From Escherichia phage vB_EcoM_WFbE185, in sequence record MK373778.1: DNA of 64,000 nucleotides, one strand, 5' to 3'. A program made the position numbers and the translations under genes. A model generated the notes under the pieces. It was not told the DNA's origin. It did no database searches and saw only the letters and a program-made list of their open reading frames with translations. Below, piece by piece: positions 15,241 through 59,815 of this stretch. How positions within the stretch are numbered: the first letter of the stretch is position 1; the number at the start of each line of letters is the position of its first letter.

Positions 15241-15248
15241 TATTTATA
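15241..15248 (-). promoter_or_regulatory. late promoter box TATAAATA for soc
   Basis: Exact TATAAATA on minus strand about 30 nt upstream of soc ATG, followed by AAGGAG SD. Confidence 0.65.
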
Positions 15249-27920: not shown

Positions 27921-29645
27921 TGATGAGTGATATCGCCACCGATTGGACGATAGGAAACACCAGTTTCTTTATCAGTTAGTACCCATTTACCAGGATTTTT
28001 TGTAATCAGAGTAGCCGTTACAGGTTCTGCTACGTCATAACTAATAGAGCCGTCCTGAAGTACACGGCCCATGTTACGTAATTGCTTAGTCAGAAGTTCC
28101 ATGCCTTTATAATATGCGGCTACAGCTTTAAGTGGATTATTCTTGAAATAACCACCTAATGCAATCCAGATAATTGCTACAGCCAAATGATGATATTCAT
28201 TAAACGAACTCAGCTTTCCATATTTGTAAACTAATGGATTGATGTTAATAGTCACATTACAAGTTGTTTCATCAATAGTAAACTGTCCCCAGGTCGGATT
28301 AGCGTTGAATTCATCATAACCTGAAACAGCATAAAGCACTTTAGCTTCATCATACAATTTTGGCCCGTAAATCTTGGTTTCGCCAAAATATCCACGAGGG
28401 TCGATAAACTTGACTTCGCCATTATCAGTAATCATAGTATTACTGAAGTTCGGGTCACCATGAATAACAGAGTACTGTCCCTGAGAACGGTTATGATAAC
28501 GAATAAGGTGTTCTAAAGCTTGTTTCAGCATTGGCTTCAGACGTCCAATCTTAGTGTAGTTCACGTGTGTGATTTTACCAAATGAATCAATCAATGGTTG
28601 AATGCTTTCACAACGATCAATAACTTTCGTATAGAATTCTTTAGTGAAATCACGACGAACAGTTTCAGGACTTACAAAATAAGTGTCTGTGCTGAATTTC
28701 AGTGCATCTAAAATCGCATCAACAATTTGTGGACGAGCAAGACTTGATTTGGATTTAATATATTCAAATGCTGGCTTACCTTTAATGCGTTCCATTTCAA
28801 AGTTATTTTCATTAACAGAAACTAACTGAGGAACTGAATCTGATTTCACTTTCAAATACCACGAAATCTCATCTTTCTGAAGAGCTCGACCCTGTTCGGT
28901 TAATGCGAATTTAGTTACAGTTTCTTCACCAATTTCAACTGCATTAAAACTACGATTAAGTTCACGAACTTCATGGGCTTTTTCAAGTTTAGGCATATCA
29001 CCTAAATCAATTAGATTCATAAGCTCTGATTTATTGAATGCGCTGCCGTAAAGGAATTCTACGAAATCACGTCCTTTGCAGTATTCATGAATTTCCTCAT
29101 CGGTAGAACCCATATAGAATTCCCAGTCTTTGAACTGATAAATTCCTACAACATTACCGCCTGTTTCACCTACATTAGTGATATTTTCACCATCGAAATT
29201 ATACCGACATTCATCACCCTTAACATAGATTGCGTTAACATTCCAAGACCATGAACCAAAATCGGGAATAATATCACACCAGTTAACAATTACGTTATGG
29301 CCGTCTAAATCTTTGTGTAATTTAGCAAGAGCATAAGCAGAACCGTATGCTTCATCAACTGTACGAATAGTCACATTGAACCCTTCTTGCTCACAATAAG
29401 CTCGCTTCATCAACTGTACGAATAGTCACATTGAACCCTTCTTGCTCACAATAAGCTCGAACAGTTTCAGCAAATTTTGAATGAACTACTACAATAATTT
29501 CATCTGCGCCAAGGTCAGAATAAATTGTATACAAATTGCTCAGAATAGTGTCTTGTTTATAGTTAACAAGCACCTTAGGAATATGATGCGTTATTGGATA
29601 TAAACGAGTTGCCAATCCAGCACCAAGAATAACAGCTTTTTTCAT
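27905..29645 (-). pseudogene. bifunctional sugar-1-phosphate nucleotidyltransferase / APH-fold sugar kinase, reading frame broken by a 55-bp tandem duplication
   Basis: N-terminal fragment (29391-29645) has the NTase signature ILGAGLATRL; C-terminal ORF (27905-29413) has kinase motifs HGDPNFSNTMI and FIDPRGYFG; both fragments contain RAYCEQEGFNVTIRTVDEA; deleting one repeat copy restores a 561-aa ORF. Confidence 0.65.
29350..29459. repeat. perfect direct tandem duplication, 2 x 55 bp (cttcatcaactgtacgaatagtcacattgaacccttcttgctcacaataagctcg)
   Basis: Two identical adjacent 55-nt copies at 29350-29404 and 29405-29459; 55 is not a multiple of 3, so the nucleotidyltransferase gene is frameshifted. 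Confidence 0.9.
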
Positions 29646-47593: not shown

Positions 47594-47624
47594 CCCTTAC
47601 CATATATAGATAAGGGTATTTATA
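47594..47624 (-). promoter_or_regulatory. late promoter TATAAATA plus RBS-sequestering hairpin (CCCUUA...UAAGGG) upstream of gene 49
   Basis: TATAAATA box at 47617-47624; 6-bp inverted repeat whose 3' arm is the SD-like AAGGG 7 nt before the ATG. Confidence 0.55.
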
Positions 47625-57993: not shown

Positions 57994-58226
57994 TACCGAT
58001 TGTGTTTTAAATGTTGATAAAGTTCTTCAACTTGTTTAGGGTCCAAAACAATTAGGTCATTTTCTTGGCGAAGATAAATCCATCCCTTATCACCAGGGCC
58101 ATTTTTACAAAACATCACCACCGTATCATCATCTTCAGCGCTTTCAGGTAAAAGTTCAAGTACACCGTCTTCAGATTTTCCAGTATAATCGTAAAGCATA
58201 ATATCCTCACATAATCTCGTTAACAT
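57993..58226 (-). CDS. hypothetical acidic protein (77 aa)
   Basis: ORF. Confidence 0.4.
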   Translation of the reverse strand: MLTRLCEDIMLYDYTGKSEDGVLELLPESAEDDDTVVMFCKNGPGDKGWIYLRQENDLIVLDPKQVEELYQHLKHNR

Positions 58227-58386
58227 ACATTTGCAATTCGGTGTGGGTGTCAGCCATCTTTTTCATTGCCTTATTGATATCAATATCGCCATCTTCGCAC
58301 CCATGGGCATTCTCCCAATCAGATACGGCATTAGCGTACTCTTCAATCAAAAACATTAACTTAGAAATTTTTTCTTTACGTGACAT
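58207..58386 (-). CDS. hypothetical small protein (start moved to Met14)
   Basis: ATG with GAGGAG SD downstream of promoter 58414-58442. Confidence 0.4.
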   Translation of the reverse strand: MSRKEKISKLMFLIEEYANAVSDWENAHGCEDGDIDINKAMKKMADTHTELQMYVNEIM

Positions 58387-58413
58387 AACGTTCTCCTCTA
58401 GTAAGTAAAGACT

Positions 58414-58442
58414 ACTATAACACAACCTGCGGAGAAGTAAAC
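58414..58442 (-). promoter_or_regulatory. early-type promoter (-35 GTTTAC, 17 bp, -10 TATAGT)
   Basis: Consensus family, sequence GTTTACTTCTCCGCAGG...TATAGT. Confidence 0.5.
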
Positions 58443-58457
58443 TGATAGATACAAAAA

Positions 58458-58481
58458 AGCCCCGACCTTTCGGAAGGGGCT
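58458..58481 (-). terminator. intrinsic terminator (GC-rich hairpin GCCCC...GGGGC + U6)
   Basis: 5-bp GC stem enclosing a small inner stem-loop, followed by UUUUUUGU on minus-strand RNA. Confidence 0.5.
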
Positions 58482-58487
58482 AGTAAA

Positions 58488-58688
58488 TTAGATAGATGTA
58501 GGCTCTAATTTTATTTTCATGAACTCGGCAAATTGTCTGGCAGTTTTTATGCCTTGTTCATGACATTCAAATGCATCATCACAGGGGCTATTTTTGTAAT
58601 GCTTTGCCATATACTTATAGAATTTTTCAGAATTCTCGACATTTTGAATTTCAAACAAAGTATATACGTTTTTAATACCTGATTCCAT
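58488..58688 (-). CDS. hypothetical small protein (66 aa)
   Basis: ORF. Confidence 0.4.
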   Translation of the reverse strand: MESGIKNVYTLFEIQNVENSEKFYKYMAKHYKNSPCDDAFECHEQGIKTARQFAEFMKIKLEPTSI

Positions 58689-58710
58689 AAAGTTATCAAA
58701 ATATGGGTCA

Positions 58711-58791
58711 ATATGTGCAGTACCAACGATAGGAGTTGTTGCTGCAAAAAAACCCCAGCATCGCTATGACAGCTATCGCTCTTAAGGCCAT
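58711..58791 (-). CDS. very small hydrophobic peptide (26 aa) with perfect SD AGGAGG
   Basis: MALRAIAVIAMLGFFCSNNSYRWYCTY; locally GC-richer sequence than surroundings. Confidence 0.25.
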
Positions 58792-58803
58792 ATAGGCCTC
58801 CTG

Positions 58804-59016
58804 TTAATTTTGGCCAGTATTTATTTTTCGCCTTTGGACGGCCTTAACATCTGCGAGGTATTTTTCCAGCTTGCGCTTGCGTGTATAATCAGCTTTAGAA
58901 CCAGTTTGACGAATATCCTCGTTTAAATGAGAAATAGAATGTCCTAATTCTCTTCGGATTTCGTCCAATTGGGTTACAGTAAGATTACGAAGTTGTCTTT
59001 CGTTTAATTGCTGCAT
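58804..59016 (-). CDS. hypothetical basic protein (70 aa) under a late promoter
   Basis: TATAAATA box 23 nt upstream of the ATG. Confidence 0.45.
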
Positions 59017-59038
59017 ATACCTCTTGGTTAGATATTAG

Positions 59039-59046
59039 TATTTATA
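59039..59046 (-). promoter_or_regulatory. late promoter box TATAAATA (overlaps tk stop codon)
   Basis: Exact TATAAATA on minus strand. Confidence 0.55.
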
Positions 59047-59623
59047 ACAACCCTGTCAAATCGTTCCAATGCTTCCGGCATAATGACACATATCTATCGG
59101 TATCACCAATTTCAATTTGACTGCCATCTGTAATTGGAAGTCCGTCTTCCGTGACTCTAGCTACCATTGTGGCCTTTTTACCACAATGACAGACACCTTT
59201 AAGTTCAACAAGCTTATCGGCAATAGCCATTAATGCTTGAGAACCTTCAAATAGATTACCTTTAAAATCTGTTCGTAGTCCATATGCCATTACCGGCACA
59301 TTGTACACGTCAACAATACGACTAAGTTGATACACCTTTTCAGTAGTTAAGAACTGAGCTTCGTCAACAAATACACAGTGAATATCCTTTTGTGCTGCAG
59401 CCCATTTATAGAATTCAAAGATATCCATGTCTTTTGTAATTATATTGGCGTCCTTACGAATACCAATACGAGAGACTATTTCACCTTTTGAATCGCGAGT
59501 ATCAATAGCCGGTTTAAGAACTAATACACCCATGCCACGTTCTTTATAGTTATGTGCGGCAGTAAGTAATGAAGCAGACTTACCAGCGTTCATAGCAGCA
59601 TATGTAAAAATTAAACTAGCCAT
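59042..59623 (-). CDS. tk: thymidine kinase
   Basis: 193 aa; MASLIFTYAAMNAGKSASLL and CHCGKKA...CRKHW closely match T4 Tk. Confidence 0.9.
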   Translation of the reverse strand: MASLIFTYAAMNAGKSASLLTAAHNYKERGMGVLVLKPAIDTRDSKGEIVSRIGIRKDANIITKDMDIFEFYKWAAAQKDIHCVFVDEAQFLTTEKVYQLSRIVDVYNVPVMAYGLRTDFKGNLFEGSQALMAIADKLVELKGVCHCGKKATMVARVTEDGLPITDGSQIEIGDTDRYVSLCRKHWNDLTGLL

Positions 59624-59632
59624 AAGAGTCCT

Positions 59633-59815
59633 TTATAGTGAATTCACATAGTCAATGAGTTCTTGTTCTTTCCTGTCAAATGATTCCATCAATGCTTGAT
59701 ATTCTTCGTCTGTTAAAGGAGCATATTCATCGTACGCATTGGTGGCTGCTTGCTCATCCAATAGGTCATGGATAAGTTCGAACAGTTTAGTTTTCTCTTC
59801 TTTAGTCAATTTCAT
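59633..59815 (-). CDS. hypothetical acidic protein (60 aa)
   Basis: ORF. Confidence 0.4.
   Translation of the reverse strand: MKLTKEEKTKLFELIHDLLDEQAATNAYDEYAPLTDEEYQALMESFDRKEQELIDYVNSL

Follow-up and report, generated by a model that had tools for sequence, protein, structure and literature searches.

The rI.1–rI lysis-timing operon of a Mosigvirus coliphage and an apparent one-base frameshift in its antiholin gene

What is a short, seemingly GC-rich stretch of phage DNA that carries a palindrome, a late-promoter motif, a tiny hydrophobic reading frame behind a perfect Shine–Dalgarno (SD) sequence and a gene for a small basic protein: a foreign module, a late-expressed one or something already familiar? 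The stretch (58690–59046) lies in a window of 64 kb, by which we mean the whole of the DNA analysed; it covers the first ~64 kb of a Mosigvirus genome, and its identity to the phages JK45, JK36 and moha is ~98%. The stretch proves to be the rI.1–rI operon, which is transcribed late and sets lysis timing, in an RB69-like T-even coliphage (Mosigvirus); the locus itself is already known as the T4-type rI operon and is neither foreign nor a new gene. Along the minus strand, from 59046 down to 58452, the late promoter, rI.1, a hairpin at the rI start site, rI and an intrinsic terminator follow in that order. The features of the region are as follows.

59042–59623, minus strand: tk, thymidine kinase, 193 aa (phrog_592, E = 2e-87; tk in relatives, and T4 tk in the same position).
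59032–59059, minus strand: possible sigma-70-like promoter (TTGACA, 16-nt spacer, TAATAT; 10/12 matches in a consensus scan), overlapping the late promoter.
59039–59046, minus strand: predicted gp55-dependent T4-type late promoter −10 element TATAAATA (exact motif, alignment to T4).
58804–59016, minus strand: rI.1 (Y05Q family), 70 aa, pI 10.19, 8.3 kDa (phrog_1826, E = 7.5e-36).
58784–58800, minus strand: RNA hairpin GAGGCC-UAUAU-GGCCUU, pairing the 3′ half of the rI SD with the G of the AUG (minimum free-energy fold).
58708–58791, minus strand: the tiny reading frame, read by alignment to moha and T4 RI as rI codons 1–15 (start of the N-terminal membrane anchor), 12 out-of-frame codons and a stop.
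58746–58752, minus strand: T7 homopolymer (A7 on the plus strand), the apparent +1 frameshift site (alignments; relatives have T6, encoding Phe-Phe).
58488–58745, minus strand: remainder of rI in the original frame, including a 66-codon reading frame at 58488–58688 (periplasmic holin-binding domain; phrog_1246, PF24205, PDB).
58452–58481, minus strand: intrinsic terminator, a GC-rich hairpin followed by U6, which closes the operon (terminator scan).

The locus is matched by ~155 Mosigvirus records at 90–98% identity, annotated tk / hypothetical / rI, and all 155 contain at least 80% of the 701-nt query. The order tk-rI.1-rI is common to the window and T4, the position of rI downstream of tk and rI.1 being conserved among relatives and T4 alike, and the module is syntenic across Tevenvirinae, with at least eight other genera besides T4 represented. 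A search of IMG/VR gave RI relatives at 8 loci only, from two genera, and tblastn against GenBank phages was used instead; a scan of 58000–59700 against Rfam gave no match. The T4 operon has the same 213-nt rI.1 and the same 12-nt gap between rI.1 and rI, and the RI and RI.1 proteins are 52% and 63% identical to their T4 counterparts. Whereas the T4 operon consists of the late promoter, rI.1, rI and rI.-1, the window is without rI.-1 and has in its place the intrinsic terminator (fold of −15 kcal/mol, z = −2.5; kept in relatives) followed by a DUF7438 gene.

In T4, RI.1 is a small, basic protein of the cytoplasm that assists lysis inhibition. The 70-aa basic protein singled out in the earlier note (59016..58804) is its counterpart: the homology search returned the phrog_1826 match listed above and 63% identity to T4 RI.1 over an equal length, and the gene lies directly upstream of rI. 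The family profile PF26904 (Phage_T4_Y05Q) matches rI.1 products on related contigs, one set of which is identical in sequence, although RI.1 itself gave no match to the local Pfam copy. The pI and molecular weight of T4 RI.1 agree with the values for the window gene (PMC2962797). Its SD, AAGAGG (59025–59020), stands 3 nt from the ATG here as against 5 nt in relatives, and this spacer change, from (TA)3 to (TA)2, is unique to the window among the 15 genomes compared.

The late promoter that had been proposed ahead of this gene is likewise borne out. The element TATAAATA at 59046..59039 lies 30 nt upstream of the rI.1 ATG and overlaps the stop codon of tk, the upstream neighbour of the module; it aligns with the T4 sequence GTTATAAATA between tk and rI.1, where in T4 a late promoter drives the rI operon (PMC2962797), the T4 promoter lying in the intergenic spacer rather than over the tk stop. 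The element is kept upstream of rI.1 or rI in Karamvirus, Jiaodavirus, Gelderlandvirus, Gaprivervirus and Dhakavirus, and three genera besides Mosigvirus have it 32 nt ahead of the rI.1 ATG. The window encodes an intact late sigma factor, gp55 (41400–40846; 185/185 residues at 100% identity by tblastn with JK45 gp55). As a bare motif TATAAATA is not enriched in the window (3 observed against 7.2±3.1 expected); all three copies are on the transcribed strand: by coordinates transferred from JK45, two precede the predicted starts of soc and gene 49 by ~30 nt and the third precedes rI.1. Late expression of the module, already known for T4, is thus supported at the sequence level by the positional conservation of the element in T4 and five genera and by the intact gp55. 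By analogy with the intact T4 module, gp55-directed RNA polymerase would start at TATAAATA and transcribe rI.1 and rI as far as the terminator at 58481–58452. The overlapping sigma-70-like promoter (59059–59032) is not credited, because the number of such matches in the region is that expected by chance (10 against 9.4±3.7) and its −35 element is not conserved in T4.

The palindrome GGCC-ATATA-GGCC is present as had been described, at 58786–58798, and forms a hairpin over the rI SD and start codon. It is beyond chance: with a fold of −13.3 kcal/mol, the rI start region is stabler than the starts of all 111 other minus-strand reading frames in the window (mean −3.2, s.d. 2.4). The stem is identical in T4, whose rI shares the AGGAGGCC-loop-GGCC start-site hairpin with the window, as well as in Gelderlandvirus, Jiaodavirus and a Klebsiella phage, and a compensatory change from a G-C to a U-A pair is found in Gaprivervirus, phage 212, pEC-M719 and Kosakonia 305; this is the one compensatory pair seen and perhaps a single event. 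As loop lengths differ, a MAFFT alignment of eight start-site hairpins misaligned the 3′ arms, and the pairs were instead read from individual folds. The SD and N-terminal codon constraints account for part of the stem conservation.

A review that lists the known inhibitory structures at T4 start sites (e, soc, 49 and I-TevI) does not include the rI hairpin (PMC3014915). Those structures likewise hold the SD and/or the AUG of a late-transcribed gene in a local RNA helix, but there the late promoter is within the 5′ arm or immediately after it, so that late transcripts escape the structure, whereas the sole TATAAATA of the window operon lies ~250 nt upstream of the hairpin, so that every transcript has it in full. 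Between the rI.1 stop codon and the 5′ arm downstream of it there are 2 nt, and a ribosome terminating at that stop would therefore unfold the hairpin. We infer that the hairpin probably couples translation of rI to that of rI.1, with the conserved stem burying the rI SD and AUG until the ribosome that ends rI.1 would open it; the abutting rI.1 stop suggests such translational coupling rather than discrimination between early and late transcripts.

RI of T4 is the antiholin. The earlier note had described a 26-aa hydrophobic reading frame with an ideal SD; the frame exists (58791..58708), as does the SD (AGGAGG, 58802–58797, spacer 5 nt), but it has 27 codons, with the product MALRAIAVIAMLGFFCSNNSYRWYCTY, and is the 5′ end of rI rather than an independent gene. 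Residues 1–15 (MALRAIAVIAMLGFF) are identical to RI of phage moha and align to the N-terminus of T4 RI, while residues 16–27 are out-of-frame rI sequence. In 129 or more relatives the same start codon opens rI as a single 100-codon reading frame with T6 at codons 14–15, the 39-mer containing T6 being present in 129 records, and removal of one T from the window run restores full RI. Judged by these alignments, the tiny frame is the first 15 codons of rI, truncated by an apparent +1 frameshift; a separate tiny gene was considered and is refuted by the alignments to relatives' rI. T4 rI, in which the T6 run is absent, is uninterrupted by such a frameshift, unlike the window gene.

The remainder of the gene is well preserved. 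Residues 12–100 of JK45 RI match it at 97.8% identity by tblastn, and the 66-codon frame matches phrog_1246 'lysis inhibition' (positions 35–96 of 97, E = 1.6e-22), PF24205 (Antiholin) and the solved structure of T4 antiholin RI (PDB 6PSK/6PSH, E about 5e-18). The N-terminal hydrophobic signal-anchor-release segment is not joined to this C-terminal domain in one reading frame, which makes this an rI gene, but a disrupted one: translation from AGGAGG stops after 27 codons, and the holin-binding domain is stranded in another frame, without an export signal and without an SD. The disruption had gone unnoticed because the rest of rI (58488–58688) lies outside the stretch originally flagged and in a different frame.

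We favour the reading that the extra T is probably a genuine rI-null allele produced by replication slippage at a homopolymer hot spot, over an error in the consensus sequence. As in classical T-even r mutants and homopolymer hot spots such as the rII A-runs, the change would be a one-base gain in a run of at least 6 nt in a lysis-timing gene, and as at those hot spots ±1 variants of the run recur in independent genomes; the known hot spots are in rIIA, rIIB and agt, whereas the gene here is rI and the phage a Mosigvirus. Homopolymers of at least 6 nt are hypermutable in T-even phages, including an A6 in rIIA (bioRxiv 10.1101/2025.10.21.683753). Four other assemblies have T7 or T5 at the same rI run: TH58 and a Logan contig from ERR14207008 have T7, in backgrounds 2–5% divergent, and phiC120 and ECCR664 have T5. 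One further candidate T5 allele, suggested for Shf125875 by a 139-nt span, is actually T6 with a 1-nt deletion in the SD spacer. The T5 and T6 39-mers worked as megablast queries; the T7 39-mer gave no match even though TH58 carries T7, probably because the low-complexity filter masks the run, and T7 counts obtained by that method are unusable. The rI gene also carries other lesions, a 78-nt deletion fusing rI.1 to rI in WFK and an inserted T near the 3′ end in JK42.

If the slippage reading is correct, the rI-null allele would gain an advantage when plaques are picked or the phage is serially propagated. In RB69, 6/6 of the sequenced short-latent-period mutants obtained by serial transfer had rI mutations, and r mutants arise at 1e-3 to 1e-4 (PMC6832632). 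The predicted phenotype of T7 is earlier lysis, with r-type plaques or a shortened latent period. RB69 is reported to be without lysis inhibition despite an intact rI (PMC6832632), and therefore the phenotype of rI loss in this genus may be subtle; in RB69-type phages such loss is reported to shorten the latent period and not to abolish classical lysis inhibition (PMC6832632).

The alternative that the extra T is a sequencing or assembly error, so that the phage has a normal T6 rI and nothing biologically unusual, is in our view rather unlikely. Homopolymers are the classic site of consensus indel errors, and some of the supporting records are of uneven quality: in ECCR664, one of the two T5 assemblies, 24 of 75 reading frames are broken, and the T7 record TH58 bears an UNVERIFIED flag, with at least one further reading frame split. 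The window itself retains, at 29349–29459, a perfect 55-nt duplication that looks like an assembly product and resembles an untrimmed assembler overlap, and the record is therefore not fully curated. All four uncultured or metagenomic contigs carrying the site have T6 (two from IMG/VR run-length scans, in which two contigs are too few to give a natural frequency, and two from a metagenome scan with a variable-length pattern), so that variant lengths are unseen outside isolates or Logan assemblies. Against an error stands the fact that, of 137 JK45 reading frames with a match in the 64 kb, the only ones broken are rI and one gene with the 55-nt duplication; rI is the sole frame broken at a homopolymer despite 49 other coding runs of at least 6 nt, no other JK45 frame is shifted, and the isolated indels relative to JK45 whose length is not a multiple of three lie in intergenic DNA or at gene ends. 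In phiC120 no other reading frame was flagged as split between frames in the 40 kb examined, the rI shift there being seen by direct alignment. The non-homopolymer lesions of WFK and JK42 show that the gene is really hit in isolates, loss of rI is known to be selected in RB69 (PMC6832632), and the 55-nt overlap would point to short-read de Bruijn assembly, in which T6 and T7 are rarely miscalled.

It is quite unlikely that the T tract is an evolved contingency (phase-variable) locus, at which T6 turns RI on and T5 or T7 turns it off, reversibly, as a hedge between long and short latent periods, with the window as an OFF-phase clone. This proposal overlaps the preferred one and adds to it adaptive maintenance and high reversibility. 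What is found here is a run of at least 6 nt inside a reading frame with variants of ±1 (T6 in 129 records, T7 and T5 elsewhere), at least four further assemblies of differing background having one or the other kind of variant at this run. A preprint shows that runs of 6 nt or longer in agt and rIIA of T2 and T4 serve as bet-hedging loci, their reversion being ~10,000-fold faster than that of point mutations (bioRxiv 10.1101/2025.10.21.683753; Gomez et al. 2025), and T6 is retained in 129 records despite synonymous variation nearby. However, GGG-TTT-TTT uses the preferred Phe-Phe coding of an AT-rich genome in which 59 runs of at least 6 nt occur in 64 kb, and special maintenance is therefore unneeded; T4 rI is without such a run, and length variants were not found in the four metagenomic contigs carrying the site. 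A more elaborate version, in which the T6 tract is a Mosigvirus-specific reversible antiholin ON/OFF switch, hairpin coupling fixes the RI.1:RI ratio, the window is in the OFF phase and slippage has struck the operon a second time, from (TA)3 to (TA)2, is distinctly doubtful.

A very improbable possibility is that the T7 allele still yields useful amounts of full-length RI, through ribosomes slipping into the +1 frame on UUU-UUU-U or through slippage of RNA polymerase on the T7 tract. In general a U7 run lets tRNA-Phe re-pair in the +1 frame, and bacterial RNA polymerase is known to slip on long A/T runs, but seven residues are fewer than efficient transcriptional slippage usually needs, and a stimulatory element (a rare or stop codon in the A site, or downstream structure) is not evident in the window sequence. 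Moreover, relatives encode RI in a single frame, and a two-frame architecture is therefore not conserved.

The suggestion that the stretch is compositionally atypical and horizontally acquired is not borne out. The GC content of 58700–58990 is 0.412 against a window mean of 0.372 (s.d. 0.028), giving z = 1.45, and 8.9% of windows of the same size are at least as GC-rich; for the full flagged span, 58690–59046, z is 0.59. A local bump of 0.435–0.48 over 100–200 nt does exist, peaking at 0.48 over 100 nt that start at 58704, a value attained by 1.5% of windows, and at its sharpest it coincides with the Ala/Gly-rich membrane-anchor codons of rI and the GC-rich SD hairpin. The percentiles of rI.1 are ordinary (GC 63rd, GC3 48th, codon score 22nd), as are those of repaired rI for GC (20th) and GC3 (58th), its codon-preference score being low (1st percentile; about −1.9 s.d. 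among short genes). Sliding-window GC and codon-usage analysis thus places the span within the genome's normal range, and with this composition, a module carried by all ~155 Mosigvirus records and the shared order and synteny in T4 and at least eight genera, horizontal acquisition is rejected. A foreign module with its own 26–27-aa hydrophobic micro-protein gene is scarcely credible, since the GC bump, the very strong SD before the small frame and an rI codon-preference score in the lowest 1% of genes are set against a GC z of 1.45 with normal GC3, a locus universal in the genus and syntenic across Tevenvirinae, a start codon that opens 100-codon rI in 129+ relatives and small-frame residues 16–27 that are out-of-frame rI.

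For annotation, the 27-codon and 66-codon reading frames are to be read as one disrupted rI and not as two genes. A Mosigvirus null for rI should lyse earlier, giving larger and clearer plaques and smaller bursts at high density; earlier lysis would affect titres, production and therapeutic dosing, and the sequenced clone may differ from the natural phage. Across deposited Mosigvirus genomes, the rI lesions are T5 or T7 in five assemblies, a deletion in one record and an insertion in another. Such recurrence suggests that the antiholin is routinely selected against as phages are isolated and propagated, and that the T6 tract is the easiest route to its loss. The tract offers a cheap, testable case for the proposal of contingency loci in phages, and the conserved, partly covarying hairpin at the rI start is a small lead on how the dosage of RI, which the literature argues to be critical, may be set.

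Searching with 701 nt around the locus gave matches in 155 phage records; 153 match at 95–98% identity, and nearly all are Mosigvirus (RB69-like T-even coliphages). Under the match the annotation is 'thymidine kinase / hypothetical protein / rI lysis inhibition regulator/antiholin'. JK45, JK36 and others are ~98% identical to a 24-kb query and have collinear coordinates starting at rIIA. The locus is a lysis-timing operon, ordinary for T-even phages and already annotated, in which tk, a 70-aa ORF, a 27-codon ORF and a 66-codon ORF follow one another on the minus strand.

Features of the tk–rI.1–rI region
59623..59042, minus: tk (phrog_592, E = 2e-87)
59046..59039, minus: late promoter motif TATAAATA, 30 nt upstream of rI.1
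59016..58804, minus: rI.1, 70-codon ORF (phrog_1826, E = 7.5e-36; pI 10.19)
58786-58798: palindrome GGCC-ATATA-GGCC
58791..58708, minus: 27-codon hydrophobic ORF, preceded by AGGAGG with a 5-nt spacer
58688..58488, minus: 66-codon ORF (phrog_1246 'lysis inhibition', positions 35-96 of 97, E = 1.6e-22)
58481..58452, minus: terminator-like GC-rich hairpin followed by U6, 3' of rI (-15 kcal/mol, z = -2.5)

The 66-aa product also matches the solved T4 antiholin RI (PDB 6PSK/6PSH, E = 5e-18) and PF24205. The neighbour beyond the rI terminator is a DUF7438 gene similar to T4 mobD.2a/mobD.3, and the whole tk–rI.1–rI block is bracketed by two paralogous small genes of the DUF7438/phrog_653 type (58207-58425 and 59633-59815, minus).

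In moha, Mizar, JK45 and other relatives a single 303-nt ORF fills the space of both small ORFs; its 100-aa product, RI (MALRAIAVIAMLGFFAATTPIVGTAHIDPYFDNFMESGIK…), starts identically to the 27-codon ORF and then runs on into the 66-aa ORF. In the DNA alignment a single difference matters: the run of T's that follows CTG GGG is seven long in the window but six in moha, Mizar, JK42 and JK45. The extra T moves the frame after Phe15, so that a stop comes after 27 codons, and deletion of one T restores full-length RI; the alignment contained no compensating indel later in rI. The 66-codon ORF has no Shine–Dalgarno (SD) sequence ahead of its internal Met, and the domain that it encodes is devoid of any export signal. 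RI works in the periplasm (PMC2962797; PMC6832632). The earlier note had described a 26-aa hydrophobic ORF with an ideal SD; the hydrophobic ORF and its SD are present as described, but the length is 27 codons. As a gene in its own right this ORF can be discarded, being a by-product of the rI frameshift.

The same note had taken 58690-59046 as a compositionally atypical, possibly horizontally acquired or late-expressed module. The GC content of 58700-58990 is 0.412, compared with 0.372 ± 0.028 for windows of the same length (z = 1.45, with 8.9% of windows at least as GC-rich), and z falls to 0.59 for the full span. The GC and GC3 of rI.1 and rI lie mid-distribution; the codon-preference score alone is low for the repaired rI (1st percentile of 102 genes; about -1.9 s.d. 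among short genes). The small GC bump coincides with the Ala/Gly-rich membrane-anchor codons of rI and with the GC-rich SD hairpin. The compositional claim fails, and we regard horizontal acquisition as wrong.

The available evidence leans towards the extra T being a real allele, which we consider probable; a sequencing or assembly consensus error at the homopolymer is an appreciably less likely explanation. When 145 JK45 ORFs were compared with the window by tblastn, 137 matched at ≥70% identity and only two real genes among these were broken, namely rI and a 561-aa GlmU-like gene with a 55-nt duplication, although 59 homopolymer runs of at least six occur in the window, 49 of them coding; the remaining isolated indels of non-triplet length relative to JK45 fall between genes or at gene ends. 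The T7 run also occurs in TH58 and in a Logan contig (run ERR14207008), in backgrounds 2–5% divergent from the window, but the TH58 record is flagged UNVERIFIED and all four metagenomic or uncultured contigs have T6. A T5 run is found in phiC120, where the rI frameshift was seen by direct alignment and no other ORF was flagged as split between frames in a 40-kb comparison. ECCR664 also has T5, but with 24 of 75 ORFs broken in that assembly it counts for little. The GlmU-like gene adds to the case for error, as its perfect duplication was left uncurated. This 55-nt tandem repeat (two copies, 29349-29459, in the JK45_00047 homologue) splits the gene into ORFs of 84 and 502 aa, and in the best eight of 153 related records the corresponding stretch falls 55 nt short of the query. 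As 55 is a k-mer size often used in de Bruijn assembly, the repeat may be an artefact, a circular overlap that went untrimmed and became internal when the genome was rotated to the rIIA start; the alternative is a genuine duplication that disrupts the gene.

A second change of the repeat-slippage type is present in the same operon. Upstream of rI.1 the window reads GAGG-TAT-ATG, whereas all 14 relatives compared read GAGG-TATAT-ATG, such that (TA)3 has become (TA)2 and the spacer between SD and ATG (59017-59019) is 3 nt instead of 5 nt. Such a shortening is expected to weaken translation, here probably that of rI.1.

The late-promoter motif and the ORF for a basic 70-aa protein described in the earlier note are both present. 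As a word, TATAAATA, the T4-type late promoter -10 motif, is under-represented in the window (three copies, against 7.2 ± 3.1 expected), but all three lie on the transcribed strand and the plus strand has none over the 64 kb. The other two copies (15241-15248 and 47617-47624, minus) precede the predicted ATGs of soc and gene 49 (endonuclease VII) by ~30 nt when coordinates are transferred from the annotated JK45 genome. Both are classic T4 late-promoter genes, and the two sites agree with late promoters known in T4. The site at rI.1 aligns with T4 GTTATAAATA; in Karamvirus, Jiaodavirus and Gelderlandvirus the motif is found 32 nt upstream of the rI.1 ATG, while in Gaprivervirus and Dhakavirus, which are without rI.1, it overlaps the stop of the gene before rI. 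With this conservation and an intact gp55 in the window, predicted late expression of rI.1–rI is well supported, and is already known.

T4 has the same layout of tk, rI.1 (213 nt), a 12-nt gap and rI, with 63% identity to the window lineage for RI.1 and 52% for RI. The T4 genes form an operon, rI.1-rI-rI.-1, served by two promoters, an early one 3.3 kb upstream and a late one that lies between tk and rI.1, and T4 RI.1 is a protein of 70 aa, pI 10.2 and 8.3 kDa (PMC2962797). The 70-aa protein behind TATAAATA fits this description exactly. Most other genera keep rI.-1 overlapping the rI stop, but it is missing at this position in Mosigvirus, where the next gene is the DUF7438 member. In Gaprivervirus, phage 212 and Dhakavirus the place of rI.1 between tk and rI is taken by a gene whose ~91-aa product has a hydrophobic N-terminal segment and whose stop codon overlaps TATAAATA; upstream of rI in an Acinetobacter phage lies the gene for a similar secreted protein of ~96 aa. 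These proteins may represent a different accessory partner of RI.

The palindrome noted previously corresponds in the mRNA to GAGGCC-UAUAU-GGCCUU (58800..58784), in which the 3' half of the SD is paired with the G of the AUG. In folds of -22 to +22 around each minus-strand ORF start in the window, the rI start was the most stable at -13.3 kcal/mol, followed by one at -10.8; the mean of the other 111 was -3.2 ± 2.4. The stem is identical, with differing loops, in T4, Gelderlandvirus, Jiaodavirus and a Klebsiella phage. In Gaprivervirus, phage 212, pEC-M719 and Kosakonia phage 305 it is GUCC…GGAC, a compensatory G-C to U-A change that may be a single event and also turns codon 2 from Ala to Asp. 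Other hairpins still bury the AUG or SD in Dhakavirus and an Acinetobacter phage, and Karamvirus has at most a weak hairpin. Constraints on the SD and the N-terminal codons account for part of the stem conservation. A review of post-transcriptional control in T4 lists inhibitory start-site structures in e, soc, 49 and I-TevI, with rI not among them (PMC3014915). In contrast to those genes, rI has its late promoter ~250 nt upstream of the hairpin, so that all transcripts carry it. The rI.1 stop overlaps the 5' arm or sits a few nucleotides upstream in every rI.1-carrying lineage examined, and a ribosome terminating there might open the hairpin, coupling RI synthesis to that of RI.1. Such coupling, which we infer from sequence, would agree with a proposed importance of the RI:RIII:RI.1 ratio (PMC2962797). 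The conserved hairpin, which the T4 review does not list, is of modest interest.

Lesions in rI are also found elsewhere, and these too speak for a real allele in the window. JK42 has an added T (GGCATAAAAAC to GGCATTAAAAAC) at about codon 80, near the 3' end, giving a 103-aa product with an out-of-frame C-terminus; the antiholin called in MK639187.1 is likewise 103 aa long. In WFK (MK373775.1, 699-1148) rI.1 (to about codon 58) and rI (from codon 10) are fused in frame by a 78-nt deletion, with loss of the hairpin, the rI SD and nine initial rI codons (the start of the anchor), and the fusion is annotated as a single 149-aa hypothetical protein. In the Tequatrovirus phages RB55 (KM607002.1) and REP4 (OQ174503.1), rI is recovered in two tblastn pieces spanning 284 or 286 nt rather than 285, suggesting frameshifted alleles beyond Mosigvirus too. 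Shigella phage Shf125875 (NC_025437.1) has a 1-nt deletion in the rI SD region (AGGAGG-CTAT versus AGGAGGCCTAT), with a shorter hairpin stem and SD–AUG spacer, and its rI is annotated from an internal start (273 nt). Alleles of this kind are on record as being selected: in serial transfer of RB69, rI mutations were present in all six sequenced mutants with a short latent period; r mutants arise at 1e-3 to 1e-4 and form larger, sharper plaques (PMC6832632). In T2 and T4, homopolymers of at least six, an A6 in rIIA among them, are reported to be 'contingency loci' that mutate at a high rate and reversibly (bioRxiv 10.1101/2025.10.21.683753). The recurrent ±1 hot spot in Mosigvirus rI is a new instance of a classical phenomenon and of modest interest, as is the evidence that sequenced isolates often carry a damaged rI.
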